Positions 3,725 through 43,400 of a stretch of DNA of 64,000 nt are shown here, piece after piece (the stretch's first letter is position 1; every line of letters starts with the position of its first letter). Below the pieces are notes generated by a model. The model made no database searches. It was not told the origin of the DNA and saw only the letters and a list, made by a program, of their open reading frames with translations. This DNA is from an uncultured Prevotellaceae bacterium. GTDB taxonomy: Bacteria > Bacteroidota > Bacteroidia > Bacteroidales > Bacteroidaceae. The translations under genes and the position numbers were made by a program. The stretch spans positions 13,345 through 77,344 of the forward strand of contig CACYYG010000003.1 of assembly GCA_902778535.1 (NCBI GenBank), written 5' to 3'.

Positions 3725-4696
3725 ATGGAAAAAGCTTGTTTTACGAATATAAGTAGTGAGATAATTTCATTACTTAATAATGCAAAAAGTGAGGTATTGG
3801 TTGCAATGGCATGGTTTACCAGTGCAGAATTATTTGAAGCATTACAATCCTGTATAAGTAGAAAAGTACATGTTGAACTCATTCTGTTAGATAGTCCAAC
3901 AAACTTTATGTATTATGCTCCTGATTTCAATAGACTTCTAACTCCTCATAGCTGTTTAAGAATAGCAAAGCAAGATGTTGGAATTATGCATCATAAATTT
4001 TGTATAATAGACAGCAAGTTGGTAATTACAGGCTCATATAATTGGACATACAGAGCAGAAACCTATAATATCGAAAACGTGTTAATTACAGATGTTTCTT
4101 CCATAGTTTATTCTTATAGACAAGAATTTGACCAGTTGGCTTCAAACATTGAAATTTCAACTTATAGTCCTAGATTAACTTGGAATGAGATTCAACAACG
4201 GGATGATGTGGATGTTCGTGAGATTAATTATGAGATAAAACATATTTGCAAAACTCGAAATCTTCCAGTCATGAATGTTATCAAAGCGAGCACTGTTGTG
4301 CAGGTTGTAGAAACAAAACGTATACCGTATGCAAATAGGTATATTGGTATAGAAGTTATTGATAACAACAAGAATTATTTTGATTCGTTTATTGAACCCA
4401 GGGAGCAGCTTCCAATCAAAACTAAAACTCACAATTTATATTTTGACAGCATGAATGAGACTGTGTTTCCCTGTACATTCATCTGTGGAACTACAAACAA
4501 CAGGGATTCAGCTCAACTTATCAAGGAAGTCAATTTGATTGACCTAACAAAGGGAATTTCAGATCTAAATCTATTGATTCAATTTTCTATGTCGCTAGAT
4601 GTAAATGGAAGTTTACGAATTGACATTACTTGTCCGGCTACTGGCAAAAAAATGATGATAAGTGATATCAACTCTAATTATGTAAAATATGAGTAA
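3725..4696 (+). CDS. Phospholipase D-family (single HKD, Nuc-like) protein fused to a C-terminal Hsp70 substrate-binding-domain-like region
   Basis: HHKFCIID...TGSYNWT HKD motif at ~3989-4050. C-terminus IGIEV...IEPREQLPIK...FSMSLDVNGSLRIDITCPATGKKMMI aligns by eye with DnaK LGIET...IAKNTTIPTK...[26 protein letters not shown]. Confidence 0.8.
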   Translation: MEKACFTNISSEIISLLNNAKSEVLVAMAWFTSAELFEALQSCISRKVHVELILLDSPTNFMYYAPDFNRLLTPHSCLRIAKQDVGIMHHKFCIIDSKLVITGSYNWTYRAETYNIENVLITDVSSIVYSYRQEFDQLASNIEISTYSPRLTWNEIQQRDDVDVREINYEIKHICKTRNLPVMNVIKASTVVQVVETKRIPYANRYIGIEVIDNNKNYFDSFIEPREQLPIKTKTHNLYFDSMNETVFPCTFICGTTNNRDSAQLIKEVNLIDLTKGISDLNLLIQFSMSLDVNGSLRIDITCPATGKKMMISDINSNYVKYE

Positions 4697-7334
4697 AGTA
4701 GTTAGCAAATACAGGTCTATTGTTAGGGAAATAAATAGAGCATTCTATCTATTTCAAGAGCTTTCAAATGATGAATTGAGACATGAGATGATTATGATAG
4801 AGCAGGCTGTCGAGCAAAGTAATTATAAAGCAGACTGCTTAGAGGAAAATCTCGTAAAAGTGTTTGCTATCGTAAAAGAAACTGCAAGACGCTTTTCAGA
4901 AGGGAATATTATCGTTTTAGCAAATGACTACGACAAGTACCTTTCAGAGACGTATGATTTTGTTGTTATAGAAAACGACAAGGCAATATATAAAAACAGG
5001 TGGGATGCTGGCGGAGTACCATTTGAGTGGAACATGGTACACTATGATGAACAGCTATTGGGTGGTATATTACTTCACAATGGTTATGCGGTTGAAATGC
5101 TGACGGGAGAGGGGAAAACTCTTGTCGCCACCCTACCTGTTATGTTGAATGCTCTTACGCATGATGGAGTGCACATGATGACCGTGAATAGCTATTTGTC
5201 AAAGCGAGATTTTGAACTCACACGTCCTTTGTATATGTTCTATGGGCTTACGGCAGACTGTATTGAGTATTATCCTAATGGAAGCGTTAGGCGCAAGAAA
5301 GCCTACAAAGCAGATATTACGTTTGGAACTAATTCTTCATTTACTTTTGATTATTTGTATGATCACCTTGCTATGGACCCTTCAGAATGTGTTCAACAGA
5401 AACACACATTCGCAATCATCGATGAGTTGGATTCAATACTGATTGATGATGCAGGAACTCCACATGTCATAGGCGGTGGCAACTATTATAATCATGGCAA
5501 ATATTATGAGGAGAATCTTCCAATAATAAAAGAACTTTTGGAATCAGGGAACGCTCTTTCTCTCTACGAATCGGATTCTTTGCATAAAAAGGCTGAATTC
5601 ACAAAGGATGGAAAGGCATGGCTTGCTGCAAAAAAACAGATTCCGGATTTATTTGCTGTTGAGAAAACCTATGAAATTGATGATTTTGACGAGCTTATTC
5701 CAACAGAAAAGAATGAATTATTAGAAAAAATGTTCATTCAAAATGTCCTTTATCAGTTGCTCGTTGCTTTTACAGTTTATGAGAAGGATATAGACTATGT
5801 CGTAGATAATGGTAAGATTAAAATAATTGACCAAAATACAGGGCGCATTAAAGAAAGTAACAGGTGGGAACATGGATTGCATTCTGCCATAGAAGTGAAG
5901 GAAGGGGTTAAGGTTCAGGATGATTTTGACGGTATGGCCGTCATATCGTTAAAGAACTATTTCAAGCTATATCACAAAGTCGCAGGTATGTCAGGAACGA
6001 TCATGGCTGTGAAAGACGAGTTGGAAGATGTCTATGGCTTGAAGTGTGAATCATTACCCACCCACAAACCTCTTATCCGCTTAGACATGCCATTACGGGT
6101 TTATAGGACAGAGGAACAAAAAGAAAAAGCTATTATTGATCTCATCATAGAAAACAAGAAAAATGGTCGGCCAACATTGTTAGGATGCATCAACATAAAA
6201 CGTTGTGAAAATATTGCTTGTCTGCTTGAAGTACAAAATATACCATTCAATCGTTTAGATGCTAAAACCATCAAAGGAGAAGCAGTCACCATTGCAAAAG
6301 CCGGAATCGGGAATACTATTACAGTAGCTACAAGCGTTGCAGGACGTGGAACCGACATCAAGCCATCGCAAGATGCGCTCGACAATGGTGGACTGATGGT
6401 CATTGGTACCGATTTGTTTGACTCAGTCAGAATAGACAATCAGTTGAAAGGAAGGACGGGAAGACAAGGCAATCCTGGCTCTTCCGTGTTTTTTGCATCT
6501 TTAGAAGATTCTATACTACAATACCTTAGCAAAGAAGATCAAATCCAATTAGAAATGATTTTTAATAACAAACAGGCCAACGAACTCAATGATACTCAGG
6601 TCTTGTCTTTCTTCGCAAAAGCCCAGTCTAACAGAGAGTCCTTGTCATATCAAAGTAGAGTAAGCACGGCGCGAAAGGATGATGTTGTTGCTCCACGCAG
6701 GTTGAGATTCTATAGCCAGCGTAATGAATTGCTCTTTAATCCAAATAGTGCTATTACGTTAGTTGAACAAATTGCCAAAGCCAACAACGTTCCCATTGAA
6801 ACTATAGACAAACATTTGAACGAATTATACCAGACCACCAAAGAATTACTTAATAGAAGTCTTAGAAATAATCCATACGCTTTACGAGCCTTAGTGGCTT
6901 TCTCTAACAACAGACATTCATTTGCCATCCATTTAAATATTCATTCTGTTATTAATAGTTGTGTTGACTTTGAGACAGAGTTTAAGAGGCAAGTATTACT
7001 GCAAGTCTCAGATAAGGAATGGAAAAAATTTGTCATCTATATGATGGGGGATTTGGATAACCATGAAATCGATTTGCTAGATGAAAGATATGAGAAGATG
7101 ATGGATAAAATAAAAGCCATTGTCCTTAGTAGGCTTACAAATTCCACAATCATTTTCGATGAAAAAAAGCAAGAAGATTACATTTATAGAAAAGAGGAAC
7201 CTTCTTCCGAGCCAGTAAAATCTCATAACACCATTGCCCCCGATGATCCCTGCCCATGTGGCAGCCAAAAAAAATACCGTGAATGTCATGGTCGAGGCAT
7301 TCACGGCACTCCTATGAAGAGACGTAGACGTTAG
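4689..7334 (+). CDS. secA: Divergent SecA paralogue (881 aa) with C-terminal SEC-C motif
   Basis: MVHYDEQLLGG, MLTGEGKT, IIDELDSILIDDA, YFKLYHKVAGMSGT, VATSVAGRGTDIK, DNQLKGRTGRQG and PCPCGSQKKYRECHG. Start overlaps the PLD gene by 8 nt. Confidence 0.9.
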   Translation: MSKVVSKYRSIVREINRAFYLFQELSNDELRHEMIMIEQAVEQSNYKADCLEENLVKVFAIVKETARRFSEGNIIVLANDYDKYLSETYDFVVIENDKAIYKNRWDAGGVPFEWNMVHYDEQLLGGILLHNGYAVEMLTGEGKTLVATLPVMLNALTHDGVHMMTVNSYLSKRDFELTRPLYMFYGLTADCIEYYPNGSVRRKKAYKADITFGTNSSFTFDYLYDHLAMDPSECVQQKHTFAIIDELDSILIDDAGTPHVIGGGNYYNHGKYYEENLPIIKELLESGNALSLYESDSLHKKAEFTKDGKAWLAAKKQIPDLFAVEKTYEIDDFDELIPTEKNELLEKMFIQNVLYQLLVAFTVYEKDIDYVVDNGKIKIIDQNTGRIKESNRWEHGLHSAIEVKEGVKVQDDFDGMAVISLKNYFKLYHKVAGMSGTIMAVKDELEDVYGLKCESLPTHKPLIRLDMPLRVYRTEEQKEKAIIDLIIENKKNGRPTLLGCINIKRCENIACLLEVQNIPFNRLDAKTIKGEAVTIAKAGIGNTITVATSVAGRGTDIKPSQDALDNGGLMVIGTDLFDSVRIDNQLKGRTGRQGNPGSSVFFASLEDSILQYLSKEDQIQLEMIFNNKQANELNDTQVLSFFAKAQSNRESLSYQSRVSTARKDDVVAPRRLRFYSQRNELLFNPNSAITLVEQIAKANNVPIETIDKHLNELYQTTKELLNRSLRNNPYALRALVAFSNNRHSFAIHLNIHSVINSCVDFETEFKRQVLLQVSDKEWKKFVIYMMGDLDNHEIDLLDERYEKMMDKIKAIVLSRLTNSTIIFDEKKQEDYIYRKEEPSSEPVKSHNTIAPDDPCPCGSQKKYRECHGRGIHGTPMKRRRR

Positions 7335-9808: not shown

Positions 9809-9946
9809 TTATGCGTGACCTCTTGGAGAAGGTGTTGAGGTCGGTGGATTCTGTGTTGATACTCTCGCCTCAGGTTCTTTACGAGTAGTTCTGAGGACAG
9901 TCCGATTTGACGGGCCAATACCATTGTATGAAGGATTGTTATTCAT
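9809..9946 (-). CDS. Unannotated 45-aa low-complexity peptide MNNNPSYNGIGPSNRTVLRTTRKEPEARVSTQNPPTSTPSPRGHA, candidate E1 substrate/modifier
   Basis: ATG 9946 to TAA 9809; the stop is 6 nt before the E2-E1 ATG; a -7 box lies just upstream. Below the ORF-track size cut-off. Confidence 0.7.
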   Translation of the reverse strand: MNNNPSYNGIGPSNRTVLRTTRKEPEARVSTQNPPTSTPSPRGHA

Positions 9947-11951: not shown

Positions 11952-14894
11952 ATGATATCATTGATTTGCATATTGGTTTTCGTTTCCGTTCTCATCGGCA
12001 TGGGTATCTCCGTCAAGGCCTTCGGCACTGGCGGCAAGCGTGCCCGTATCTTCCAGGACATCTATTTCAGCATCGAGGATGTTGATGGTATCGGCATCAT
12101 CTATACCAAGACGGGAGAGTATTCCGCCATCATTAAGATGGATAATCCCGTCCTGAAGTTCTCCGCTGACGAGGACAGCTACTATGGCTTCGTGAACCTG
12201 ATGACCTCCGTTGTCACCACGCTTGGCGAGGGCTATGCCCTGCACAAGCAAGACATCTTCGTCCACAAGACTTTCGAGCGTCCCGCCGACGAACCTGTGG
12301 ACAACGGCAAGCGTTTCCTCTCCGAGTCCTATTTCCGTTTCTTCAAGGGCCGTCCCTATACGGCCAGCAGCACCTATCTTGTCATCACCCAGGAGAGCAA
12401 GAAGGGAGGTCTCTTCACTTTTGAGAGCAAGAAATGGGGTGACTTCCAGATGAAGATCCAGAAAGTCTATTCGCTGCTTTCCGACAGCGGCATCACCTGT
12501 TCCTTCCTCAGTATGAAGGAAGCCCGTGAGTATGCCGACCGTTTCTTCGCCGTCAACTTCAACGACAAGGTCTTTTCCATGACCGACTTCAAGGTTGACA
12601 GCGAAGGAATCCGCATGGGCAACAGGCAGTGCAAGGTCTTCAGCCTGATAGACCTCGACAGCGTAGGACTCCCCAATGTCCTCCGTCCCTATACCGAGCT
12701 TCATGTCGATAACGCCACCATGCCCGCCGATCTCATGGGCGACATCGACCATGTGCCTGATGTGGACACCCTTGTCTACAACCAGGTTCTGTTCATCCCC
12801 AACCAGAAGAAGGAGCAGAACAACCTGGAGAAGAAGCAGAACAAGCACCGTGCCATGGCCAACCCCGCCAACATGATTGCCGCCAAGGACATCGAGGAGG
12901 CCCAGGAGGTCATGGCCCGTGAGAACCGCCAGCTTGTCTATTCCCATTTCAACATGCTTGTCAGCATCGGTGCCGACAAGGACATGGACAAGGTCACCAA
13001 CCATCTGGAGAATATCTTCTCCAAACAAAATATCCGTATCAGCCGCCGGGCGTACAACCAGCTGGAGCTTTTCGTGGCCAGCTTCCCCGGTAACTGTTTT
13101 TCTTTGTCGCCCAAGTACGACCGTTTCCTCACGTTCTGTGAGGCCGCCATCTGCCTGATGTACAAGGAGCGTCAGACGCAGGGTGACATCACCCCGCTGC
13201 GCTGCTACTATACCGACCGTCAGGGCGTGCCCATGGCCGTTGACATCACCGGCAAGGAGGGCAAGAAGAAATACACCAATAACAGTAATTTCTTCGTGCT
13301 GGGTCCGAGCGGCAGCGGAAAAAGTTTCTTTATGAATACCGTTGTCCGCCAGTATTACGAGCAGGACACCGATGTCGTCATCGTCGATACCGGCGACAGC
13401 TATGAGGGTATCTGCGGCTATTTCGGCGGTGTCTATATCAGCTACAGCAAGGAACGTCCCATCTCCATGAACCCCTTCAAGGTCACGGAGGAGGAGTACA
13501 CCCAGAACTTCGGAGAGAAAAAGAACTTCCTCAAGAGCCTTATCTTCCTCATCTTCAAGGGCACCGAGAAGCCCACGAAGATTGAAGAGACCATCATCAA
13601 CCAGACCATCGTCGAGTACTACCGTGAGTATTTCACGCCTTTCAGGGGCTACAGCGACACCGAGCGTCAAGAGCTTGCTGACCGTCTCGTTCTCCAGTAC
13701 AAGAAGGACGGCACTTTCGACACCTTTGAGAAGGACTTCGAGAAAGCCTATATGGAGAAGCATGGTGTCAGTCTCACCGAGGAGGAACAGGAGCGTCAGG
13801 ACAGGCTGATGAACAAGGAGCGTAAGCTTGACAACCTTATCAATGACGATGCCGCTACTGAGGGAGAAAAGCACTCCGCCAGGGTGCGTCGTGAGGAGGT
13901 GCACCATGAGCTGATGAAGCTCACCGAGCTTACCGCCAGCAGTTTCGATGACAAGATCAGCCGTGATATCATCAAGATGGAGATGCAGCGCAGCAAGCTC
14001 CGTGTTTCCGAGCTGAGTTTCAATACTTACTATGAGTTTGCCGTGGAGCGCATCCCCCAGATACTGAAGGAGCAGCATGTGGACTTCGCCATCCATGACT
14101 TCGCCACCATCCTGCAGCCGTTCTACAAGGGTGGTGAGCTGGAGTACACGCTGAACAACGATATGGACAGCACCCTTTTCGATGAAAAGTTCATTGTCTT
14201 CGAGATTGACAAGGTGAAGGACGACCCCATCCTTTTCCCCATCATCGTGCTCATCATCATGGATGTGTTCACCCAGAAGATGCGCATCAAGAAAGGCCGC
14301 AAGTGCCTGGTCATCGAAGAGGCGTGGAAGGCCATTGCCACCCCCGTCATGGCAGAGTACATCAAGTACCTCTATAAGACCGCCCGCAAGCATTGGGCGA
14401 TGGTCGGTGTGGTGACGCAGGAGATCCAGGACATCACCAGCAGTGAGATTGTCAAGGAGGCCATCATCAACAACTCCGACGTCTTTATGCTTTTGGACCA
14501 AAGCAAGTTCAAGGACAAGTTCGATGACATCAAGGCCACGCTGGCCTTGACGGACATCGACTGTAAGAAGATCTTTACGATTAACCGTCTTGACAACAAG
14601 GAGGGTCGCAGTCCCTTCAAGGAGGTCTTCATCAAGCGCGGCACAGAGGGAGATGTCTTCGGTGTCGAGGAGCCGAGGGAGTGCTATATCAGCTATACCA
14701 CGGAGAAGGCCGAGAAGGAAGCCCTGAAAGTCTATGTCCGCCATTACGGTGGTGACTACCAGAAGGCCATCGTTGCCTTCATCCATGATTGGGAACGCAG
14801 CGGCATCGGCAAGTCTCTGGAGTTCGCCCGCAAGGTGTTGAAGGAAGGCGTTCTCAACCTCCCCGCAAGGAGTGTGAGGATGATACAAGCATAG
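11952..14894 (+). CDS. traG: TraG / VirB4-family T4SS ATPase
   Basis: Walker A GPSGSGKS, VIVDTGDSY, Walker B LVIEEAW, TARKH...VTQ. Confidence 0.95.
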   Translation: MISLICILVFVSVLIGMGISVKAFGTGGKRARIFQDIYFSIEDVDGIGIIYTKTGEYSAIIKMDNPVLKFSADEDSYYGFVNLMTSVVTTLGEGYALHKQDIFVHKTFERPADEPVDNGKRFLSESYFRFFKGRPYTASSTYLVITQESKKGGLFTFESKKWGDFQMKIQKVYSLLSDSGITCSFLSMKEAREYADRFFAVNFNDKVFSMTDFKVDSEGIRMGNRQCKVFSLIDLDSVGLPNVLRPYTELHVDNATMPADLMGDIDHVPDVDTLVYNQVLFIPNQKKEQNNLEKKQNKHRAMANPANMIAAKDIEEAQEVMARENRQLVYSHFNMLVSIGADKDMDKVTNHLENIFSKQNIRISRRAYNQLELFVASFPGNCFSLSPKYDRFLTFCEAAICLMYKERQTQGDITPLRCYYTDRQGVPMAVDITGKEGKKKYTNNSNFFVLGPSGSGKSFFMNTVVRQYYEQDTDVVIVDTGDSYEGICGYFGGVYISYSKERPISMNPFKVTEEEYTQNFGEKKNFLKSLIFLIFKGTEKPTKIEETIINQTIVEYYREYFTPFRGYSDTERQELADRLVLQYKKDGTFDTFEKDFEKAYMEKHGVSLTEEEQERQDRLMNKERKLDNLINDDAATEGEKHSARVRREEVHHELMKLTELTASSFDDKISRDIIKMEMQRSKLRVSELSFNTYYEFAVERIPQILKEQHVDFAIHDFATILQPFYKGGELEYTLNNDMDSTLFDEKFIVFEIDKVKDDPILFPIIVLIIMDVFTQKMRIKKGRKCLVIEEAWKAIATPVMAEYIKYLYKTARKHWAMVGVVTQEIQDITSSEIVKEAIINNSDVFMLLDQSKFKDKFDDIKATLALTDIDCKKIFTINRLDNKEGRSPFKEVFIKRGTEGDVFGVEEPRECYISYTTEKAEKEALKVYVRHYGGDYQKAIVAFIHDWERSGIGKSLEFARKVLKEGVLNLPARSVRMIQA

Positions 14895-28435: not shown

Positions 28436-31400
28436 ATGGCATACAACAAGTCAGAGAAGCTGAGAGATAATATCGCGGCCATCAGGACGGCCTTTGATAT
28501 TGAGCGTTCCGGGCGAGAGGCAACGGAGCAGGAGAAGGCCGTGCTCAGGAAGTACAGTGGTTTCGGAGGCTTGAAGTTCATTCTCAACCCTTGTGCCGAT
28601 GATGGTGACATTGAGAAGTGGAGCCGCTCCGACCGTCCTTTCTTCACCGCCACCCGTGAGCTGTATGGCGTGCTCAGCGACTATGCCCGTGATGGCTACG
28701 AATACCGTGACTTCGTGCGTAGCATCCGCAACAGCATCCTTTCCGCCTTCTACACGCCAGTCCCCGTCGTGCAGGCCATCGCCGGTGTCCTAAAGGACAA
28801 GGGTCTGGAGGTCAAGCGCTATCTCGATCCCTCTGCAGGCAAGGGCACTTTTGTAGAAGCGTTCAAACAGGCATACCCTGATGTCTCTGCCACGGCCTTT
28901 GAGAAAGACCTCATCACGGGTAAGGTGCTGAAAGCCCTCTATCCCCATGACCAGGTGCATGTCGATGGCTTTGAGACCATCGATGCCTCCCGCCGTGGGA
29001 CATACGATGTGGTGTCCTCGAACATCCCCTTCGGCGACATCTCCGTCTTCGATGACGGCTTTGCCCGTTCCGGCAATGCTGTCAGGGCGGCAGCCACGAA
29101 GACCATTCACAACTATTTTTTCCTGAAGGCCCTCGACCAGCTCCGTGAGGGCGGTTTTGTTGTCTTCATCACCTCGCGTGGCTTCATGGACTCGCCTTCC
29201 AACAATGCCATCCGTGAGGAGATTATCAGGAATGCCCGCCTTGTAGGTGCTTTCCGCCTTCCCGATGGCCTGTTCGCCGACGAGGCAGGGACGGAGGTCG
29301 GCAGCGACCTCGTCATCCTCCAGAAATACACGGGCTACGACTCCTCCCTGGATCCTGACAGCCTCGCTTTCTGTAAGGTGGAGAAAGGCTTTAAGGCCAT
29401 GAGCGGCGAAGACTACACAGGCATATCCCTCAACAGTCACTGGTGGCAGTCTATGATGGCCCCGGACTCCGAGGCTTTCATCTCCACCAGGATGGAGCGA
29501 GGCACTGACCCTTACGGCAAGCCGACCCTCGTGTTCACCCATGATGGTGACATGCAGGCCATCGCCAGCCTCCTGACGCAATATATGTCCCGTGACCTCT
29601 ATCGTGAATATGTTGACTATTACAAGCTCCATGCTCCGAAGCCCAGGCAGGAGGAGCAGGTCACGGTGTTGTCACAGCCCAAGCCGCAGCAGTCGCGTCC
29701 TGTGCAGCAGGAGCAGCCGGTGCAGCTCAGCCTCTTTGACCTCTGGGCCGAGGAGGTGACGAGCCAGGAGAAACAGCCGTCCATGGAGCCGCGTCCCTTT
29801 GCAGGTGACATCCTCCCTCACTACCGTAACGGCATCCTCGTCGAGGACGGTGGGCAGATGGGCTATCTCACGGGTGTAGGCTATGAGAATACTTTTACCC
29901 CGACTGAGCTGTCTGACGACCAGTCTGGCCGCCTGAGGCTCTATGTGAAGGTCAGGGATGCCTACGAACAATTGTACAAGAAAGAGTCCGAGCAGAAGGT
30001 GGAGCAGCCGTTGCTGCGTGAGGAGCTTAACCGTCACTATGACAATTTCCTCATTCGCTACGGGTTCCTCAACGACCGTAGGAATGCCCGGCTGCTGCTG
30101 ATGGACGTGCAGGGCCGTGATGTGCTGTCGTTGGAGAACAGTGAGGACGGCAGGTTCGTCAAGTCCGACATCTTCCTCCGTCCCGTGTCCTTCAATATCC
30201 ATTTGGATGGCCATGTAGAGACGGCTGTCGATGCCCTGTCTGCCTCCCTCAACCGGGGTGGCGGTGTTGACCTGGAGTATATGGCCTCTATCAGCGACTA
30301 CACCGAGGAGGAACTGCGTGACCAGCTGAAGGAGCGCATTTACTTCAATCCCCTGGCTGGCGGCTATGAGATTGGCGACAAGTTCCTCGCTGGCAATGTC
30401 GTGGAGAAGCTTGATGCGCTGAGAAGCTGGCCGTTGAATGATGACTTGAAGCCCGAATTCAAGGAGGAGCTGGAGCGTTCAATCACTGCTCTGGAGGGTG
30501 TCGTGCCTACGCCCATCACCTATAGTGAGCTGGACTTCAACTTCGGCGAGCGTTGGATGCCCAAGGCCTATTTCTCAGCGTTCGCCACCGAGTTCTTTGA
30601 GACGGATATAAAGATTGACTATGCCCCGCAGCTCGATGAGTTCGTTGTCGATGTGTCGGGCTACAGTGCCAAGCTCAGCCAGGAATTCGCCGTGACGGGT
30701 GAGACGAAGACCTACGATGGTGAAGACATGCTTCGCCATGCCCTGTACAACACCGTTCCAGTGATACAGAAATGTGTCGGTTACAAGCCCAATGGTGACC
30801 CCATCATGGGGCCTGACCATGAGAAGATACAGCTGGCTGCCAGCAAGGTCGACCAGATACGTGATGGTTTCACGGAGTGGATTGACCGTCATCCTGACGA
30901 GTGGAAGAAGGCTCTTGCCGACTTGTACAACAGGAAATACAACTGTTTCGTCAAGGCCAGCTATGACGGCTCCCACCAGACCTTCCCCGGTCTCGACCTG
31001 AAGGGCCTTGGCGTCAGCAAGTATCAGATAAAAGACATCTACAAGTCGCAGAAGGACTGTGTGTGGATGCTCCTTCAGAACGGCGGCGGCGTGTGCGACC
31101 ATGAGGTCGGCACGGGCAAGACGCTCACCATGTGCATCGCTGCCCATGAGATGAAGCGTCTCGGCCTTGCGCATAAGCCCATCATTATCGGCATGAAGGC
31201 CAATGTCGCCGAGATTGCCGCCACCTATCAGGCCGCCTATCCTGGTGACCGCCTCCTCTATGCCACGCAGAAGGACTTCTCCGACCGCCAGAACTTCTTC
31301 AACAGGATGAAGAACAACGACTACGACTGTATCATCATGAGCCATGACCAGTTCACGATGATACCGCAGTCCGCCGACATCCAGCAGAAGGTCATCCAGG

Positions 31401-34400
31401 AGGAGATCGATGCCATCGACGAGGCGCTGGAGGTCTATGCGCGTCAGGGGCACAGCGTCAGTGGTCGTATGCGCTCAGGCCTGGAGAAGCGCAAGCAGAA
31501 CCTTGAGACCCAGCTGCTGACCCTCAATGCCGCCCTTGCCAGCCGTGCCGATGATGTCGTCGACTTCAAGACGATGGGCATCGACCATATCTTCATCGAC
31601 GAGAGCCAGGCCTTCAAGAACCTCGCCTTCTCCACCCGCGACAGCCGTGTGGCCGGTCTCGGCGACCCCAAGGGCAGCCAGCGTGCCCGTAACCTCCAGT
31701 ATGCCATACGTACTATCCAGGAGCGCACGGGGCGTGACCTCGGTGCGACGTTCCTCTCCGGCACCACCATCAGCAACAGCCTCACGGAGCTGTACCTGCT
31801 GTTCAAGTACCTCCGTCCGAAGGCCATGTCCATGCAGGACATCAACAGCTTCGATGCCTGGGCAGCCGTCTTCGCCCGCAAGAGCCGTGACTATGAGATC
31901 AATGTCGCGGGCAGCATCGTGATGAAGGAGCGTTTCAGGCAGTTCATCAAGGTGCCTGAGCTGGGCGCCTTCTATAACGAGATTACCGACTATAAGACTG
32001 CCGCCGACGTGGGCCTGCAGCGTCCTGACATGGACGTGCAGCTGGTGAACATCCAGCCCACCGAGGACCAGCAGGACTTCCAGCGGCGTCTGTTGCAGTT
32101 CGCCGAGAGCGGTGACGGTGACCTTGTCTTCCGTCCTCAGCTCAGTGACAGCGAGCAGAAGGCCAAGATGCTCCTGGTGACGAACATGGGCAAGAAATGC
32201 TCGCTCAGTCCCAGGCTTGTCAATCCCGGCTACCATGAGGGTGATGGCACCAAGATTGGTGTCGCTGCAAGGAATATCAGTGAAATCTATTATCAGTATA
32301 ATAAGCAGCGGGGCACACAGTTCGTTTTCTGTGACCTCTCCACGCCGAAGAAAGGAGAGTGGAGTGTCTATCAGGAGCTGAAAGACCGGCTTGTCAACGA
32401 GCACCATATCCCTGCCGACCAGATACAGTTCATCCAGGATGCCGGCACGGAGAAGAAGAAGAAGGAGTTCATCGACAGGATGAACCGTGGTGACATCCGT
32501 GTGATGATCGGCTCCACCACCATGCTCGGCACCGGTGTCAATGCCCAGCAGCGTGCCGTCGCCGTCCATCACCTCGACCTGCCGTGGCGTCCCAGTGACA
32601 TGGAGCAGCGCAACGGGCGTGCGCGGAGAAAAGGCAATGAGGTGGCCCGTGACTATGCGGGGAACACCGTGAAGTGCTTCGTCTATGCCGTCGAGCGCAG
32701 TCTTGACAGCTATAACTTCTATCTCCTGCAGGCCAAGAGCGAGTTCATCCGCCAGATGAAGACGGGCGCCTTGGCCAAGCGCAGCTTCGACCAGGGCGGC
32801 GAGGATGAGGACAACGGCATGCCGTTTGCCGAGTATGTCGCCATCACCAGTGGCAACAACGACCTGCTGGAGCGTGCCAAGCTGGAGAAGCGCATCCTTG
32901 GCTTGGAGGCTGAGCGCAAGGCCTTCTACAAGCAGCAGCAGGTGACGCAGCAGCGGCTGAACTTCTCCCGGGAACAGGTTGCCCATTTCGATGCCGTCAT
33001 CGGAAAGCTCAATGCCGACAAGAACGCCTTGGAACAGGCCCTGAGAGGTGCTTACCCGGACAGTTCCGATGTCTTTGAGGAGCTGCGCACGCCTCCCTCC
33101 GTCTTTGCTTTTCGTCCTGTCGAAGACCCTCAGCTGCACAGGGTGCGTCTTGACATGGCGCTTCCCAATCCCTATGGTGACTACCTGCAGCAGGCCGCAC
33201 GTCAGGAGGTGAATGGCGAGGTCGTGGTGGCCCGTCTCACCGTGGATGGCCTGGACTGGCCGATAGCCATGTCCTCCAAGACCGAGTACAACCCCAATAC
33301 AGGTGTCAGTCGCTGGGTTGGGAACAAAGTCTCTGTTGTCGGTGGCAGCGGTCTTCACTATACCTATAACAACGGTAAGGTACCGCTCTCTGACAAGGCC
33401 CTCGCCTCCAGGTATCCCTTGGAAGCTCTCTCCCGCATCCCTGAGATCATCAGGGACCAGCAGCGGCAGCAGGAGTCTTATGCGAAGCAGATCCCCGAGC
33501 TGGAGCGCATCGCTGGCAAGGTGTGGGAGAAGACCGGGCAACTGAAGGAGCTGAAAGAGCAGCTGCAGGCCCTTGACCGCAAGATCCAGCAGGACATGGA
33601 CGGCAGGGTGGCACAGGCCGCACAGGCTGCGAAGCCCGAGGAGCTGCCCTTCACCATCACCCACAAGCAGTGGGGCCGTGACCCGTGGGAATTACAGTTC
33701 AAGGTGGCAGACTATCCCTTCCTTAACCATGCCGACCGTGACGGCATGGCGGAGAAATACCATGGCTACTTCCGTATCTATGACGGTATCGTTACTGGCA
33801 ATTTCCGTCATCAGTTCGGTGCTGAGGAGGCCATGAAGGAGCTTTCGAAGCTCAATCTGGAGCACAAGGATGATGTGGAATGGCTGAAGACCGCCGTCAA
33901 GGATGTCCGTGATGCCTCCTGCATCCCCTCCGTACATCGTCTGCGCGAGCTGGGCTATGACCGTTTCGGCAGGTCGTTGACGGGGGGTAATGCCAGGTCG
34001 CTGCGTGCCGTCAGCCTCGGTCCTTATCAGGATGAACGTGTCAGGGCACTTGCCCATGGTGTCAAGGACGGCCATGGCGTGGCCCTCGACGTGGCGGCTG
34101 CTGCCATGGCGAAGGCTTTGGAAGGCACGCCAGTGTCGAAGAATGCCGTTCTCGTGGGCATGCCAGGGCATAAGGGCTATGGCGGCTCCGCCCAGCGTCT
34201 TGCCAAACGTCTCTCCGAGCTATCTGGCATCCCGTATGCCGACGTCCTCGCCAGTGGTGAGCATGAGAGCCTCTATGAATGGAAGAAAGAGCATCCCGGT
34301 GAGGAACTGCCCGAGCTGTTCTTCACCGAGGATGAGCGCACTCCCGTCCCCAAGGGCAGGACGCCCATCATCATCGACAATGTCATTGATACGGGTCATA

Positions 34401-37400
34401 CCGCCTGGGCCGCCGTCGAGGCGCTGGAGGCTGAACCGCTCCTCTTTACTGTCGGCAGCACCGGCCATGAGGACAGCGAGGGTCATGACATCAGGCTGTC
34501 GGTGCTTCCAAAGGGTGTTGACCTCATCGTGGGTGCCATGCCCGATGGTGTGGGACTGACAGGACTCTCAAAGGAAGAATTCGAAGCCTTGCTGAAAAAG
34601 GCACAGGCTGATGCCGACCCGGAAGCCCGCCGTGACCTCCGCAGGCGTGGCGTGGACTGGTACACCGGCCAGCCCGCCTATCTCGTCGCCCATATCGTGG
34701 ACAAGTATGAGAAGGTCTTCTCCAACGAGATAGAAGGTCCCGTCAGGGAGCTGACGGACAAGGGAGCGTCTGCACAAATCTTCCAGAGAGAAGAGCTGCG
34801 TCATCTGACAGACAGTGAAAAGACATCCTTTGATGAGCTCATCGAGAAAGTGAAGGACAATCCCAAGAGTGGCTACAGCTACCAGCAGCTGTATGACAAG
34901 CGCCGTCTGTTGGTTGTCCATGACTATTTGAAGGAGAAGGCTGCCCGTGCCATCGAGCAGGAGGCCCAGCGGAAAGAGCAGGGCACGCTGCGCTATGACG
35001 TGGCCAACAACCAGTGGAGCGGCATTCCCTCTGACGTGACGGTCTACTGTAATGGTGAGCCGGACAGGATTCATGAGGTTTACGGCTATACGCCCAACAA
35101 TGACATCGACCTTGTCTATTTCAAGGCTGAGACGGAGGAGGCCAGCTTCGCCTTTGTCCGTGTCTGGGTGGACGACCACCAGGCCGAGACCCCTGCACAG
35201 CTTGTCATCCGCCTGGAGAAGGAGGGCTATGATGTGGGCCTTCATGGTGAGCGTGGCCGTTATGTGGACTTCGACACCTGGGATGAAGCTGTGCAGTTCG
35301 AGCAGCATGTGCGTGACATCGAGCGTGAGGTACATGCGCCCAAGGCTGCAAGTGAGCGAGTGCAGAGTGATGCTCGCATCAACTCTGCCGAGCGTGGGCA
35401 GGCTCGACCGAAGGTCAAGGCTGAGGTGAAGGAGCTTGAAAGCCCTATCATGCGGCAGTTCCATGACCTGAAGGCCAAGCACCCCGACGCGCTCCTCCTA
35501 TTCCGCGTCGGCGACTTCTACGAGACCTATGAGAACGATGCCGTTGAAGCCTCCCGCATCCTCGGCATCACCCTTACCCACCGTCATCCCACTGCCAGTT
35601 TCCGTTCCCCGAAGGAAGCCATGGCAGGTTTTCCGTTCCATGCCCTTGACACGTTTTTGCCCAAGCTGATCCGTGGCGGCAAGCGCGTGGCCATCTGTGA
35701 CCAGCTCGAAGCGCCCAAGGCCACGGCCAAAAGATCTGTCACGGAGATGGTACAGCCCGGCTTCCGTCCCCGCCTGCAGATGGTGGAGTCAGTGGAGGAC
35801 ATGAAGAATGTCCTTCCCCGCGATGCCCTTCTCCGTGACGCCCTCATTGAACGTATGCGTGAGGCCGGTATCAGGGTGACTACCGATGTAGCCGCTGCCG
35901 AGCGTGTCCTTGCCCAAGAGACCGTGCGTCAGCATGCCGGATCCGCTGCTCCTGTCTTTGTCAGCAATGCCCGCCGTGCTGTGGAGCGCATCCTTCAGGA
36001 CAGGGCCACTCCTGACCAGTGGCTGCGCATGATAGAACGGGCAGGAGGCATCAAGGCCGGTGAAGACCGTTGGATGGGCCTGTCCCTGTGGCTGATGGAC
36101 TCCAAGGAGCGCACCCTGACGAAGCGGCAGGTGCTGGAGTTTATCGATGACCATCAGATACGGGTGGAGGAAGTGCGCTACCGTGAGCCGTCCCCCGTGA
36201 CGGACAGCCTGCGCCTCGACATGATGAACGAGGAGTTCTGGGAGCTGATGGCCGACGGCGAGGAAGCCACCGGCTCGCTCTATGTCGATGACCATGCCCG
36301 ATGGGCTTGGGATCGGTTGGTCGAGCGCTATGGTGATGACTTCCGCAAAAACACCCAGTTTGAGAACGACCCAGTGAAAGGCTGGCATCTGAAGCCTTTC
36401 GAGTGGTACGAGGGCAAGGGGCCGTCAGCGAAGGCTGCCGACTACTACGGCATTGACAGGACTATCAACGACACCCGTCTGGAGTATACCACGGGCGGGC
36501 TGGAGAACAAACGTGAGATAGCCCTTGTCGTGCCGGGCATCGAGAGCTGGCGTGACACGGACGATGTCCATTTCGGTGATGCCGGTGACGGGCGTGCCGT
36601 GGCCTGGGTGCGCTTTGGTGATGCCGTCAGCCAGCAGGAGCGCAGCGAGGAAGAGATACAGGCCATCATCCAGTCCATGCCTTCCGCCGACCAGTGGAAA
36701 GAAGTGAACTATTTCCATGCCGTGCCAGGGTACAGGAACTTCTACAACCTGAACCGCAACAGTGTCTCTTATGCCGACTGTATTCTCGAGAAGGACGGGC
36801 AGTATTCCATCCTGCTCAGCCAAGAAAGCACGAAGTCGTTGATGGACGGTGAACGGAATGTCGCTGCTGCGAAGCGTGTCGGCGGCATCTTCAGCAGTCT
36901 GGCAGACGCCGTTGATACCTACAATGAGTTTGTCGCCCGTCGTGACCGCTTCATCGAGGAGAAGACGCTGGTCATCGACGAGATACAGAGCCAGCGCCAT
37001 CAGGAGGGCCGTGAGAGGGGTTACAACCCCAAGGTGGACATCCGTGGCTATGCGGTGCAGACAGACGAAGACGGTAACTATCTGGTCACCCATCCCGATG
37101 GTGTCAGCGAGGACGGGCTGGAGCGTATCGCCTCACGTACCATCCGTTTCTACGATGCCGGCAGCCCTGAGAGGGCCATCCTCCTTGCAGCCCGCCTAGA
37201 CCAGAATATCTATCCGTCCTCGCGTGTCCCCGCCGCCCCCTTTGAGAAGAACTGGCATGAGCTGGCCATGAAGCGGATGCTTCGCTATGCTGCAGAGAAC
37301 GGCTATGACCGGGTGGCATGGACAACCGGCAACCAGCAGGCAGAGCGCTACAGCCTCGGTGAGCATATCGACTTTGTGAGTGCCGAGCCTTACGAGGCGC

Positions 37401-40400
37401 AGCTCCCGTCGGAGTCCAGTGGCTTCGATGTGACGCTGCACACCCGTGGCATGGCCACCGTTGACCTCTTCGTCACCCGTGATGGCATCATACAGAGCGG
37501 CTATTATGGCGACAAGGAAGACTATTTCGCCGGCCAGCCGCTCGCCAAGGTCGTCGGCAAGAGCCTCACGGAAAAGATTCTTGCCGTTCAGGACTGGCAG
37601 CGTTTTGACAGTGAAGACCTTCATATCGGGGCAGAGGGCATGAACACGTTCTATGACACGATGCTTGTGAACTTCGTGGACAAGTATGGTCGGCAATGGG
37701 ACGTGAAGACCGAGGATGTGGAGATGCGCCACCTTGACATCACGGGCAGGATGCACTCCGTCGCTGTCACGCCGCAGATGCGTGACGATGTGAGGAAGGG
37801 CCAGCCGATGTTCTTCCTGGACGGCAGCCGTCAGGCTTATGGCTTCACCTATGACGGGGAGGTCTATGTCGACAGGCGTGTCGCCACTGCTGAGACTCCC
37901 ATCCATGAGTACACCCACCTGTGGGCTGAGGTACTGCGCCAGCGCAACCCGAAGGAATGGGAGAACATCGTCTCGCTGATGAAGGGGTGCCCGGAGCTGT
38001 GGAAAGAAGTCACTGGGCGTTACGCCCATCTGCATGATGAGAGTGACATCGCCGAGGAAGTTCTTGCCCACTATAGCGGGCAGCGGGGCTACCAGCGGCT
38101 GATGGCTGACTATGGTCGCCGTCAGGACGTGACGGGCCATGCCATCCTCGACATTCTCTCGGAAGCCCTTGCAAGGCTCTGGAAGACTGTTGCCGATTTC
38201 CTGCATATCCACTATACCACCAAGGAACAAGTCGCCGACCAGGTGCTGAGTGACCTGCTGAACCGTGTCAATCCCTTGGACTACAAGACAGAGGTCATTT
38301 CTGCCGGAGCGGTCCTCTCAGGCCGTATAACGGAAGATGTCGTGCGTGCCATGTCTGAGCAAGGCACACGGTTCGAGACCCTTCATTCCCTCCATGACCG
38401 TGCGGACTATCTCACCTTTGGCGAAGTCAAGGACTATGGTGGAAAGCCTTTTGTTGATGTCATCAGCCATTACCCCAATGGCAGGGCGGCCCGTCTTAGT
38501 TCACCTCTGGACAGCGAGATGCGCTACCTGAACGATGAAGTCATCAAGATGACCGTGAAGGACGACCTCATCCTGCGGCTGCCGCCCTCGGGTGCATACC
38601 GCGAGAGCCAGGAAGAACAGGTCGAAAGCGCGTATTTCAAGGAGTGGTTCGGTGACTGGCAGCATGACCCTGAGAAAGCCTCCAAGGTTGTGGATGCTGA
38701 CGGGCGTCCGCTTGTCGTGGAGCATGGCACCCATGCCTCGTTCACAGAGTTTGACATCAGCCGCCTGGGTCAGAACAGCGGTGATGCCGGGCATTACGGT
38801 GCAGGCTTCTACTTCGGCACCAAGGCACCCGGATGGCTGGAAGCTCCTGTCACCATGAAGGCCTATCTTGACATGAAGCATCCATTCGAGATCGATGCTG
38901 GCATTCAGAGGAATATCTATGACTATCTGAAGGAGCATTTTGACCAGCCGGCCCTGCGCAAGCTGGTGCTTACCGAGAATGGCAAGGAGCTGACCCTTGG
39001 CGACTACATTGACCATATCAAGGCTGTTGACAACCTTATCAGTGGCAATATGCCATATGTCGAAGAGCAGATGTCGAAGGATGCCGAGCTTCAGTATTAT
39101 AAGCCCGATGTCCGTCTGGATGTATGGCGTGAGCATGAGCTTTCGCGCCGTACCGGCTTCATCATCCCCGGTTCCCTTCCATACGTCATAGGTGAGATGA
39201 TCGGCTCCGAGAACTTCACTATAGGCTTGAAGGAAGATGGCTATGACGGTGTCATTGCCACTCACCACTATGATGATGGTCACGAATACAAGGATTACGT
39301 CGTATTCGAGCCAGGCCAGATTAAGTCCGCCACGGACAATGTGGGGCTGTTCAGCAAGAAGTCCAATGACATCCGCTATCATCTTTCAGGTGAAGAGGTA
39401 TACACCACAGTAATGAAGGAAGGAACGCAGCCCAGTGTCTCTTCCCGCCATCTGACACCCCAGGACCGTGAGGCCGGAGGTGCCCTTGTGGACCATCTGG
39501 CCAGGATGGGCATCACTGTCCATACCGACAATAATGAGAACCGCCGCATCCTGAAGGCTGCCCGACTAGACAACAGCGAGGCTGGCAAGGTACGCCATTT
39601 CAAGACCCAGGACGGCAATACCTATGGCTTCGCCTATAAGGGACAGCTGCACCTCGACCTGCGGAAGATTGATGCGGAGCTGCCTCTCCATGAATATGCC
39701 CACCTCTGGTGTGAGGCCCTGCGCCGCATCAATCCTGAGAACTGGAACCGTGTCGTGTCCATGCTCAGGGACGATGCCGCTTCCTGGCAGTTCGTCCGTG
39801 CCGCCTATCCCGAGCTCCAAGACGCCGATGATGTCGCCGAGGAGGTCATCGCCCATTACAGTGGCCGGCATGGCGCTGAGAAGCTGCGTGACGAGCTGGC
39901 ACGGATGACCCCTCGTGATGCCAACTATGGCAGCCGTTGGGGCAATATCTTCCAGAATGTCAGCAAGGCCATCCAGGACTTCTGGAAGCATGTCGGCGAC
40001 TCCCTGAACATCCAGTACGTCAGTGCCGAGGATGTCTACGACCAGATCCTTAATGACTTTGCCAAGAAGGTCAATCCCGTGGCAAAAGTTGAGAAATACC
40101 TCAAGGAGCGTGACAGAATTTATGAGCAGTGCGTCGAGGGCGGTGACCTCGACACGGCAGCGGCCATGTTCGAGGAAGCCCTTCAGGAGCACGTCGGGGG
40201 TGGTGTGACGCCATTCATGGCCGTTGACGGCTATCGTGGCAAGCTCGACCGTCTAGCGCGTGATGTCAAGGGCGGCTCTGACGATGCCATCCGTCGTGCC
40301 GCCGCCCTCATGGCACCTCTCGTCCCCGTCTATTCCGTGCTGGTGCCTGCTCCCGGCCATGAGGGCTATGCCACTGACATGCTGGCTCTTGCCAATGCCA

Positions 40401-43400
40401 TCTCCCAAGAGACGGGTGCCCCTGTCGCCGATGTCCTGAAAGGGGATCCCAGGGAACGCCAGTATGACGTGAAGAAGGCCACCGGCAAGCCGATGACCGC
40501 CGATGCCATGGGCATCCGCATGGAAGGCGTGTTGCCTCAGGGCTATATGCCTGTTGTCATCGACAATGTGGTGCACAGCGGTAATACCGCCGAAGCCTGT
40601 GTCAGGGCCTTGGGAAAGGGTGTCGTGCTCTCACTGGCCAGTGCCGTCAGCCAGGAGCGCCATGTATCTTCGCTGATGAGCCTGGAGCCTGTCGTCTATG
40701 ACAAGGAAGGTGTGCTCATACCCCTCAGCGAGCGTTTCAACCTGAAAAGCAGATACCTCGGCAGGGCGATGGAGTACCGTCCTCTGGATGAGGGATTGCA
40801 TGTGGCCGAGCCGTTGACCATAGACATCCGCACGGGAAACAGTCATAGCCCGCTTGACAGCTATCTCGGTTCCAAAGCCGTCTATGACGCCGTTCTCTCC
40901 TTGTCAGGAAGCCGAGACAAGCTGGTGGCAGGCTATGAAGATCCTGACAGCGGCGACTATGTGTTTGTCGGCACCCATGCCCATGTCATGCGGTCGTATG
41001 ACAAGGAGCATCTTGGCAGCTTCTCGCAACATGACGGCCATGATGCCGTGTATCGTATCCACCTGTCAGATGGCAGCTTGTATTCTGTCTCTATCCTCTC
41101 TGCAAGCCTGGTCCATGACGGGTATAACCTTGCTGTCATAGGCAAGGAAAAGGTTCGGGAGCTGATGGACTCGAAAGGTCATGCGACGCTTCAGAGCCTA
41201 TCGCGCCCTGTCGTCCGCAGTGCCGTGCAGCTCGACCTATTCAGGGATGCACCTGCCATGGAAGAATCTACGGAAGCTGCCGCTGTCCATGCCAGTCAGG
41301 GAAGTACTGAAGACACCTCCCTCGACCTCACCGCCCTCCACCTGCGCGACCTTGCAGATGGTGAGCAGTGCTTCGTGGAACGCCGCTACCGTGAGAACGG
41401 CTTCTTCAGTTTTGTCGGTGGCGAGTCAATAGATTCCGCCGAGGATGTGGCTTTCATCTTCAGAAGTCTTGAAGACCAGAGCGTGGAGAACAGCTTCCTT
41501 GCCATGGTGAAGGACGGCAAGCCGTTGGTCATCCATCTGGGCATAGGTACCTATAATGAGGTGCCTGCTCCCATCGAGAAGGCTCTTGTCGCCTTCAATG
41601 AGCTGAAACCGGATAAGGTATGGTTCGTCCATAACCATCCCAGCGGGTCGCTGAAGGCCAGCTTCCTTGACATGAAGATGCATCAGCGCATGCAGGAGGT
41701 CTTCGGTGCTGCCGTGCAGCCGAGTATCATCATTGACACCACGTCAGGAAAATACGGGGAATACACTGATGTGTACAGTGTTGACCTTCCGCTCTCGGGT
41801 AATGACGAAAGCCACATGGTATCTGTGCCTACCTTCCAGTTCGACCGCCAGGTCTTTTCCAAGGGATGGAACCCAGAGCATTCCATGATGGCATCATCGG
41901 CAGCCTCCATCGCCGGTTTTGTCAGCAGCCAACGCCTTGGTGAGCGTGACAAGCTCAGCCTTATCGTGCTTGACCAGGCACAGCATATCACGGGGAATGT
42001 CTTCATTCCCTGGAACACTACCAAGGCTATTGTCAAGGGTGGCCATGCCGGTGAGCTTGCCGGCTATGTCCACCAGATGGGCGGCAACCGCTGCATCATC
42101 TATGGCAGTGAGGACGGTGTGCGCATGACAGATACGGAAACGATGACCATGCTCTCCAAGCAGCTGAAGTCCTTTGGAGTGCGCCTTGAAGACATCATGT
42201 CCGTCAGCAGGAGTGCTTTCCAGGAAGGCATCTTCTATGCCAAGGAGGAAGACAGGGGTTATAGTATGGCCGGTGAAGCCGTCATCGACGAGACGGTAAG
42301 GCCCATCCAGGGGCTGGAGAACTATTCAGAGGCTGAGATACAGGACTCTGTCAGGGAATATTTCGGTTCCATGCTGGAAGGAACGGATGTTGATGTTGAG
42401 ATTGTCGGAATGAAAGTCATCGGCAGCCGTATGGAAGGTACAGGCACGGCAGACAGCGACCTTGACGTTCTCTTGGAGTACAAGGGCGATTTCAGCGAGG
42501 ACAGTCTCTTCAACATCCTCAATGATGCCGATGACCGCCTGTATATTGAGGGCATCCCTGTTGACATCAATCCCATCACGGAAGGCAAGAGCGGTACCAT
42601 CCGCGAGTTTCTGGAGCGTAATGCGGGCTACAGGAAGGCGGAACCTGTTGATAACGATACAGCGAAGAAGTCTATGAACCATGATGAGAACGACATGTAT
42701 GTGGAGCCAAAAAAGTCTTCACATCGAGATTTAGACGCTACTGTCAGGCAGTTGTTGTCCCGTGATGACTCTTTCCGCTATCAGATGCTTGATCGTCTGC
42801 GTGTTGACTGTAACTATTTCCTTGGTCATGGCGGAAGGTATGAGGGCAGCCTCTGGGCCGGAAATGTCAATGACCATATAGCTGTCATGAAGGAGCTGTG
42901 GAAGTCCCTTCCCGAGAAGCCGGAATGGCTGACGATGGAGCAGATTGACGCATATGCCAGGGACATGGGGGCAGGGCTGGACTCTGCCGTCGAGCATTAC
43001 TCGGATGAGCAGTCTGCCATTGTCAAGGATGCCGTCTGTGATTACCTTCAGGGTGTTCGTGATGACTATTACCCCCATGCGATGATGGAAAGGGCTGAAA
43101 TCGACATGGCCGTCCATCATGAAGATGTGCGTTCCACCGAGGATGCGGCCCGTGTCGCCCATGAGGTCAGCGTGGAGATGCTCCTTCGTGCGGAGTCCGT
43201 GGAGCCGGGTATCGTGGAGCGATATACAGGAGAGTCCTTGGGCATGGAGGCAAGACGTATGGCTTCTGATGCCACTGCATACGCCAGTACTGTGCTGTAT
43301 AACAGGGAGAATGACATGGAGCGTAAGCTGGAAGAAAAAGTGTCTGTCCTTAATATAGCCCTGAAGACGGCACGGCCATCTGACTTACGTGCCATGGGCA

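Follow-up and report, generated by a model that had tools for sequence, protein, structure and literature searches.

An open reading frame (ORF) for a SecA-like ATPase, here called P0001, was analysed in a 64,000-nt stretch (the window) of contig CACYYG010000003.1 (assembly GCA_902778535.1), which comes from an uncultured Prevotellaceae bacterium. P0001 is probably a cytosolic, SecA-derived ATPase for handling polypeptides that forms part of a four-part, defence-like mobile cassette combining protein conjugation with a nuclease; its exact role there is one that we infer. The cassette consists of a nuclease (phospholipase D (PLD)-family or restriction-endonuclease-like), the SecA-like motor, a Cap2-like E2-E1 ligase and a disordered tail ending in ...PRG[HY]A (Table 1). 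To our knowledge, SecA, among the best-studied of motors, is known solely as the secretion ATPase coupled to SecYEG, and its SecA2 variants still export; searches of the accessible literature yielded no description of a SecA/ligase/nuclease system of this kind. If our reading is true, a family that keeps motor and clamp minus the parts facing membrane and channel amounts to a natural separation-of-function experiment on SecA.

Throughout the family, deletions have removed both elements with which canonical SecA engages the membrane and SecY, namely its amphipathic N-terminal helix and the tip of its two-helix finger. SecA is anchored to acidic lipids by the N-terminal amphipathic segment, which is required for high-affinity binding to SecYEG, and the finger tip reportedly sits at the mouth of SecY, where its aromatic residue is said to matter for translocation (a view associated with Erlandson et al. 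2008). Aligned with Bacillus subtilis SecA (1tf2), a profile built from 24 close homologues ran as far as the C-terminus and left a single 13-residue gap, precisely over the finger tip 'gihlrayaqtnpl'. For wider comparison we used an alignment of 44 sequences, made up of 30 diverse representatives of the family (with identities as low as 32%) and 14 canonical SecAs, including four of ~1100 aa from Bacteroidota. Here the pattern [YL]xQ[KR]DPLxEYKxE occupied the finger tip in 14/14 canonical SecAs and in 0/30 family members; in the housekeeping SecA of the same genome the tip reads ...NASYEQKDPLLIFKLE. The N-terminal '...(K/R)(I/L)FG...' segment was likewise absent in 30/30 family members and present in most of the canonical sequences aligned. 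An earlier note on this DNA, made from the letters alone, had reported the finger tip as missing, and this holds in a proper alignment, with the 13-residue deletion found in all 30 representatives. It also holds in the structural model of P0001, which has a short hairpin at this place (helix 758–785, a turn, helix 797–818). The same note had called the finger "eroded", which does not fit: as the deletion is common to all 30 representatives and the residual hairpin is conserved (0.74) like the nucleotide-binding domains (NBDs; 0.74–0.82), it is a fixed deletion.

The remainder of the protein, i.e., the motor, the clamp formed by the preprotein cross-linking domain (PPXD), the scaffold and wing, and the zinc knuckle, is intact and under constraint. 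Apart from the P-loop_SecA and SecA_PP_bind matches listed in Table 1, P0001 matched SecA_DEAD (9.9e-82), SEC-C (7e-07) and, weakly, SecA_SW (29.7 bits, profile positions 7–152 of 200 only), and solved SecA structures aligned to it at ~1e-115. All strings quoted in the earlier note were located: EWNMVHYDE (residues 113–121), EMLTGEGKT (136–144), IIDELDSILIDDA (243–255), LLQVSDKEWK (769–778), MMDKIK (804–809) and CPCGSQKKYRECHG (855–868). Its statements that the motor motifs are all there and that the W-x-MVHYD segment and SEC-C are present were thus borne out. The Walker A and B, motif III and arginine-finger motifs are invariant across the 44 sequences, in which TGEGKT, the DExD box, GMSGT, GRGTD and QLxGRxGRQG are unchanged, as are the NBD2 residues R553, G554, D556, Q585 and G588–G594. 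Mean column conservation within the family amounted to 0.70 for the PPXD, not far from the values of the NBDs given above. The PPXD lacks the ~100-aa insert of the housekeeping SecA in the same genome; the scaffold/wing hairpin stretch can be aligned in that protein, too. Scaffold and wing had been described as shortened, which is correct only if the ~1100-aa Bacteroidota SecA is the standard; their length is similar to that in B. subtilis SecA, with 96 vs 102 residues aligned. The knuckle residues C855, C857, C866 and H867 are invariant in the 24 close members, and a SEC-C knuckle occurs in ~25 of the 30 representatives, and most of its carriers end in a basic tail.

The AlphaFold structure predicted from the 44-sequence alignment has the full SecA architecture (predicted local distance difference test (pLDDT) 90.6, predicted template modelling score (pTM) 0.86). 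It supersedes an initial model from a shallow 24-sequence alignment (pLDDT 64.8), of which the C-terminal part alone had been used. The top 36 Foldseek matches of the model were all SecA chains, with the best TM-scores for SecY-bound SecA in the closed-clamp state, 6itc_A (0.70/0.80) and also 5eul, 3dl8 and 3din. As a side observation, several E2 models in PADLOC for cyclic-oligonucleotide-based anti-phage signalling systems (CBASS) match P0001 solely via the SEC-C knuckle (residues 850–871). SEC-C-type zinc knuckles thus recur in ubiquitin-like defence modules, where they may have a docking role.

P0001 is clearly a second SecA in its host, as the earlier note had supposed. On another contig of the source genome (100% complete, 3.9 Mb, 52.7% guanine plus cytosine (GC)), a second SecA_DEAD gene encodes a 1126-aa housekeeping SecA of the Bacteroidota type, to which P0001 is ~41% identical; the genome contains one SecY gene. 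P0001 scored below every NCBIfam cut-off for SecA (PRK12901, 662 vs 1493; TIGR00963, 528 vs 800) and for SecA2 (TIGR03714, 450 vs 930; TIGR04221, 382 vs 725; TIGR04397, 499 vs 1085; NF012136, 353 vs 1100). In an unrooted maximum-likelihood tree with three clades, the family was split from all canonical SecAs by a branch with 100/100 support and a length of 0.79. A ~49-residue NBD1 insert ending in W-x-M-x-HYD is common to the family and the ~1100-aa Bacteroidota housekeeping SecAs and absent in the 10 other canonical SecAs. Because this insert is specific to Bacteroidota, the family likely descends from a Bacteroidota SecA, and the tree is compatible with such an origin and faster divergence thereafter.

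Close homologues of ~880 aa number more than 120, and the family has ~30 clusters at 50% identity. Reading frames are intact and catalytic motifs invariant in 24 orthologues at 57–99% identity and in the ~30 clusters, whose identities reach as low as 32%. Wherever a source is named, it belongs to the Bacteroidales of gut or rumen; one is the cultured Phocaeicola barnesiae DSM 18169, whose possession of the cassette makes genetics and biochemistry feasible. Of the 201 species genomes examined from this bacterial family, two (that of the window and one other) have a P0001-type gene, while a ~1100-aa SecA is found in nearly all. In addition, the search for representatives returned SecA-like motor regions inside very long proteins, namely P0183 (4930 aa), P0237 (2073 aa), P0230 (1756 aa) and P0180 (1554 aa).

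The genes around P0001 form a constant set. We collected 67 loci (686 kb) by exact-protein look-ups, from GTDB genomes and by a metagenome scan, and scored them by tblastn and motif search; many are near-duplicates, so that they represent roughly 15–20 distinct lineages. A Cap2-like ligase gene adjoins the SecA-like gene in 65 of the 67 loci, the other two being cut by contig ends, and a nuclease gene is adjacent in 59/59 loci that include the N-terminus of the SecA-like protein. In all 58 loci extending to the start of the ligase gene, exactly one ORF ends in R[GA][HY]A*, and a six-frame search of the 686 kb detected no such ORF end elsewhere. This linkage persists through changes in gene order: the arrangement PLD>SecA<ligase<peptide of the window is replaced by PLD>SecA>peptide>ligase in L021 and by peptide>ligase>PLD>SecA in L022, and loci of the fused-tail type described below have nuclease>ligase>SecA (L019, L020) or SecA<ligase<nuclease (L016). 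Hence the four components stay linked through gene-order shuffling, effector swapping and fusion. According to the earlier note, neither a SecY2 nor a dedicated substrate was present. The first half agrees with the single SecY of the genome, but the second overlooked a conserved cassette in which ligase, nuclease and tail peptide are the obvious candidate partners or substrates of the SecA-like protein. Its overall view of a repurposed ATPase (sensor, unfoldase or decoy) is partly supported: the evidence agrees as to the paralogue, the lost finger tip and the single SecY, and not as to the "eroded" finger and the missing partners.

The ligase matched ThiF (3.4e-20) and the PADLOC E1-E2 model PDLC00827 (2.4e-70), and its best solved relatives are the CBASS Cap2 structures 7tsq/7to3 (7e-15). 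The best NCBIfam match was cap2_3 of the 6A-MBL system (NF058523); at 84.9 bits vs a cut-off of 320, the ligase is not a cap2_3 equivalog. Conserved motifs among the orthologues inspected were the E2-like YPHLI...WFCLN and the E1 motif GCY.PTF. A Pfam scan gave no match for the N- and C-terminal parts, whose assignments as E2 and JAB-like domains are putative and drawn from conserved motifs. In one lineage (L027–L029, e.g., L028:3784-4893), a transposase of the ISL3 family truncates the ligase gene, an apparent inactivation.

Thirty-two distinct orthologous sequences of the free tail peptide have in common an N-terminal PSYNG(I/L)G, a central (K/R)TVLRTT and a C-terminal TPSPRG[HY]A. The same end reappears on another protein of the cassette. 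Three lineages (P0146, P0150, P0152) have, instead of the PLD gene, one that encodes a restriction-endonuclease-like protein of 409–510 aa; these effectors end in ...AKSPRGYA, ...TPSSRGYA and ...APSSRAYA, and no separate peptide gene lies beside them. The C-terminal label of the peptide is thus fused to the effector, which is the arrangement known for Cap2 substrates (the tails of CD-NTases). Its occurrence as a fusion to the nuclease in some lineages and as a free peptide in others offers a testable model of how tag and effector are connected.

Both effector types resemble nucleases. The nearest solved relatives of the PLD protein are Zucchini/MitoPLD, Nuc and NucT, and its HxK(x4)D(x6)GSxN motif is invariant in nine orthologues. 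All three restriction-endonuclease-like effectors contain a PD-(D/E)xK-like motif (PDLxYI...FIDIExDEPY...GW.V.RF); two of them were compared, with 42% identity over 227 aa, and the same two marginally match DUF559/Vsr-like models. By BLASTP, the PLD protein resembled none of the effectors of the restriction-endonuclease type. A helix that is strongly hydrophobic and resembles a transmembrane segment is found at the N-terminus of two of these three (KD19 3.2 and 2.8); hydrophobicity and sequences of the PLD effector and the free peptide gave no sign of a hydrophobic leader. Helix-bearing effectors with a long charged linker ahead of the tail are encoded at L016:6560-8035 (−) and L020:136-1668 (+). 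For the C-terminal domain of the PLD protein a Pfam scan gave no match, and a profile of it (residues ~218–317) had weak matches in the PDB (E 0.2–0.6), of which the non-PLD ones were all Hsp70 substrate-binding domains (SBDs) in one register. We tentatively regard this domain as a possible Hsp70-SBD-like, peptide-binding module. Should this likeness be real, effectors of the PLD type could bind the free peptide without a covalent link, whereas the restriction-endonuclease type carries its tail covalently.

Taken as a mechanism, the ligase would adenylate the C-terminal Ala of the tail and conjugate the tail, together with an attached or bound nuclease, to a target, by analogy with the action of Cap2 on CD-NTase tails and with 6A-MBL. 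The SecA-like protein would no longer push chains into SecY; its ATP-driven clamp might instead capture or present an unfolded polypeptide in the cytosol, either the tail or the target, or sense one during infection, and thereby couple recognition to nuclease action; it would thus be a presenter, sensor or unfoldase. The overall role would most likely be to defend the host, or the conjugative element in it, from phages or other mobile DNA. This would add a new class of components to the bacterial ubiquitin-like immune systems (CBASS type II, 6A-MBL, Bil/Bub). A more specific version, possible but on the doubtful side, places the SecA fold in a pathway of immunity unrelated to secretion and has a cytosolic SecA clamp and a Pup-like, disordered peptide tag, conjugated by the Cap2-like E2-E1, capture or thread a tagged or unfolded polypeptide (e.g., freshly injected or nascent foreign chains) and so direct the nuclease to the invader. 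If true, SecA would for the first time be seen to underlie a 'tag-and-thread' defence, and its motor to have a function away from the translocon.

Several observations weigh against the proposed role. PADLOC 2.0 recognises no system at the cassette and matches P0001 through the SEC-C knuckle alone, so that the term "defence" rests on context. The partnership of the SecA-like protein with tail, ligase and nuclease is a candidate one drawn from gene linkage, and its role could be indirect. The closed-clamp state is a prediction of the model and does not count as evidence for substrate binding. With E-values of 0.2–0.6, the Hsp70-SBD likeness of the PLD C-terminal domain is sub-threshold; because DnaK was not found in the source genome with the HSP70 model PF00012 and the DnaK signature motif (it may be masked, missed by the filter or truly absent), this likeness stays at the level of weak PDB-profile matches. 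Finally, the hydrophobic helix on two effectors leaves a membrane- or export-related role open.

Compared with known systems, P0001 is like housekeeping SecA (PRK12901; SecA-SecYEG complexes 3dl8, 3din, 5eul and 6itc from B. subtilis and Thermotoga maritima) in its five-domain architecture and ATPase motifs, and shares the NBD1 insert and the SEC-C knuckle with the Bacteroidota form. It differs by the loss of the N-terminal amphipathic segment, of the 13-residue finger tip and of the large PPXD and other inserts of Bacteroidota, by an extra polybasic C-terminal end, and in being non-essential, sporadic, low in GC and encoded in a ligase/nuclease cassette. Accessory SecA2 proteins of Firmicutes and Actinobacteria (the four SecA2 models named above; 4uaq, 6sxh) are likewise second, non-essential SecA paralogues. 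SecA2 proteins still act in export, and some are accompanied by SecY2/Asp proteins or dedicated exported substrates. P0001, in contrast, has no SecY2 in its genome, lacks the finger tip, falls below the cut-offs and is partnered by cytosolic conjugation and nuclease enzymes.

The conjugation part has closer relatives. In type II CBASS, Cap2 (an E2-E1 fusion) acts on the C-terminal tail of the CD-NTase (Ledvina et al. 2023 and Jenson et al. 2023, in the summary of PMC13276650). The cassette ligase is a Cap2 homologue, and what it conjugates is likely the disordered C-terminal tail found on the effector or next to it. However, neither a CD-NTase nor a nucleotide-activated effector was detected among the cassette proteins with Pfam, NCBIfam and PADLOC. 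The cassette thus lacks the CD-NTase, the cyclic-nucleotide effector and a separate Cap3; its tail can be free, and a SecA-like ATPase is an obligatory extra. The 6A-MBL anti-phage system consists of ubiquitin-related elements and a protein of the metallo-β-lactamase (MBL) fold (cited in PMC13276650 and bioRxiv 10.1101/2025.09.30.679545). Like the cassette, it combines a Cap2-type module that has no cyclase with an effector resembling a nuclease, but the cassette effector is of the PLD or PD-(D/E)xK type (DUF559-like) instead of MBL, and the SecA-like motor has no counterpart there. A looser parallel is tagging by Pup and the Mpa/proteasome in Actinobacteria, which involves the PafA ligase, an AAA+ ring motor and a protease. 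Like the cassette, it conjugates a small disordered tag via the C-terminus and has an ATP-driven polypeptide-handling machine nearby; the cassette has E1-E2 in place of PafA, a SecA clamp of the superfamily 2 (SF2) type in place of the AAA+ ring and a nuclease in place of the protease. This is an analogy only, and homology is not claimed.

The strong conservation of the clamp bears on another explanation, namely that P0001 is a nucleic-acid motor: a reverted DEAD-box/SF2-type translocase or sensor acting on phage RNA or DNA, which recruits or licenses the nuclease as in DISARM (DrmA/DrmC) and Mokosh (MkoA/MkoB). SecA NBDs are DEAD-like, P0001 also matches Helicase_C (1e-05) and has a polybasic C-terminal end, both effector types are nucleases, and the PLD partner weakly matches DrmC, MkoB and DpdK models (DrmC/MkoB 1e-13 to 1e-06). 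Yet the polypeptide-specific modules (PPXD, wing, scaffold) have been kept and are conserved as strongly as the motor, whose SecA-type motifs are unaltered. P0001 has gained no nucleic-acid-binding domain and matches no DrmA or MkoA model. A comparison of isoelectric points revealed no overall charge shift toward nucleic-acid binding, with medians of 6.09 for the family and 5.92 for canonical SecA, both acidic. Furthermore, P0001 is invariably accompanied by an enzyme that conjugates proteins and has a peptide as its likely substrate. We consider such a motor unlikely.

Quite improbable, too, is a specialised secretion or insertion motor, a Bacteroidota 'SecA2' that exports the nuclease or another dedicated substrate via the housekeeping SecYEG. 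The full SecA architecture of the model and the retained SEC-C knuckle would be expected of it, and the hydrophobic helices with which two restriction-endonuclease-type effectors start are signals of the type that SecA recognises. Against this, no member has the lipid-binding segment at the N-terminus or the finger tip with its conserved aromatic residue, the genome has no second SecY, and P0001 remains below all SecA2 cut-offs; the PLD effector and the peptide lack a hydrophobic leader, and the partners are cytosolic enzymes requiring ATP and a free C-terminus.

The strictly conserved ATPase site, needless in a passive decoy, also makes it very unlikely that P0001 is a decoy or guard, i.e., a SecA mimic whose binding by a SecA-targeting phage factor triggers the ligase/nuclease module. 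Such a mimic would account for the descent from a SecA of the host phylum with its lineage-specific insert and overall surface architecture kept, for the loss of translocation-specific parts and for the placement in a defence-like cassette. However, at ~41% identity to the host's own SecA and on a long branch, it would mimic poorly, and literature searches yielded no phage inhibitor of Bacteroidota SecA. Lastly, P0001 might be a SecA duplicate in decay and only by chance a neighbour of unrelated defence genes. Defence islands do gather unrelated genes, and the cassette matches no system known to PADLOC, but this explanation is effectively refuted by the linkage statistics, as linkage to ligase and nuclease persists across four gene orders and the effector swap, and by the intact frames and invariant catalytic motifs of the 24 orthologues and the ~30 more distant clusters.

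Table 1. Coordinates of the cassette, of the domains and motifs of P0001, and of neighbouring features in the window.
Feature	Position	Strand	Remarks
Protein with Schlafen AlbA_2 domain, >1105 aa	3-3317	−	directly upstream of cassette; no PADLOC match
PLD-family nuclease, 323 aa	3725..4696	+	PLDc_2 1e-25; C-terminal domain of ~140 aa; 8-nt overlap with start of SecA-like gene
SecA-like ATPase P0001	4689..7334	+	open ORF, 881 aa
Bacteroidota-type NBD1 insert (residues 73-115)	4905..5033	+	ends W-x-MVHYD; small beta-sheet in predicted model
Walker A, MLTGEGKT (residues 137-144)	5097..5120	+	T139-T144 invariant in 44 family and canonical sequences
Walker B / DEAD box, IIDELDSILIDDAG (residues 243-256)	5415..5456	+	D245, E246, D248 invariant in 44 sequences
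PPXD, minimal size	5499..5903	+	SecA_PP_bind 4.8e-18
NBD2, motifs GRGTDIKP and QLKGRTGRQGNPG	6069..6593	+	P-loop_SecA 1.7e-43
Helical scaffold and wing domains (residues 636-757)	6594..6959	+	predicted model: long helix 636-683, two more helices, beta-hairpin 733-750
Shortened two-helix finger (residues 758-818)	6960..7142	+	13-residue tip with conserved Tyr/QKDP deleted, at ~residues 786-796
SEC-C zinc knuckle (residues 853-869), then polybasic end (KRRRR)	7245..7331	+	
Cap2-like E2-E1 fusion ligase, 823 aa	7331..9802	−	convergent; stop codon overlaps SecA-like stop by 4 nt
Disordered tail peptide, 45 aa, MNNNPSYNGIG...VLRTT...TPSPRGHA	9809..9946	−	unannotated; 6 nt upstream of ligase gene
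TraG-like ATPase	11952-14894		conjugation module
Single 6594-aa ORF	28436-48220	+	conjugative region of ~55% GC; looks like a polyvalent giant protein
Second low-GC cargo block	55612-61886	+	DUF1848 protein, then 1735-aa DEAD/Helicase_C protein with weak REase_MTES_1575 match
Conjugative coupling protein	63091-63987		

The SecA paralogue had been described as mobile, which is plausible. The cassette genes have a GC content of 33–38% vs 52.7% for the genome, and in the window this low-GC block adjoins a conjugation module that includes an ArdC gene. The contexts at other loci are unrelated to one another, with neighbours such as a reverse transcriptase, a helicase and a Zeta toxin, an MmeI-type restriction-modification system, an IetA-like ATPase, or VapE/DUF5906; the sporadic occurrence in two of 201 species points the same way. 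Most of these neighbours, like the Schlafen AlbA_2 protein and the conjugation module of the window, are typical of defence loci or mobile elements and favour the defence reading. Searches of phage records, IMG/VR contigs and PLSDB plasmids found no family member, the matches there being housekeeping secA. A scan for sigma-70 promoters and terminators gave counts at the level of shuffled sequence, Bacteroidota promoters lying outside the models of the scan. A further defence pair may be encoded in the second low-GC cargo block of the window, which has genes for ArdC and lytic enzymes to one side and the conjugative coupling protein to the other.

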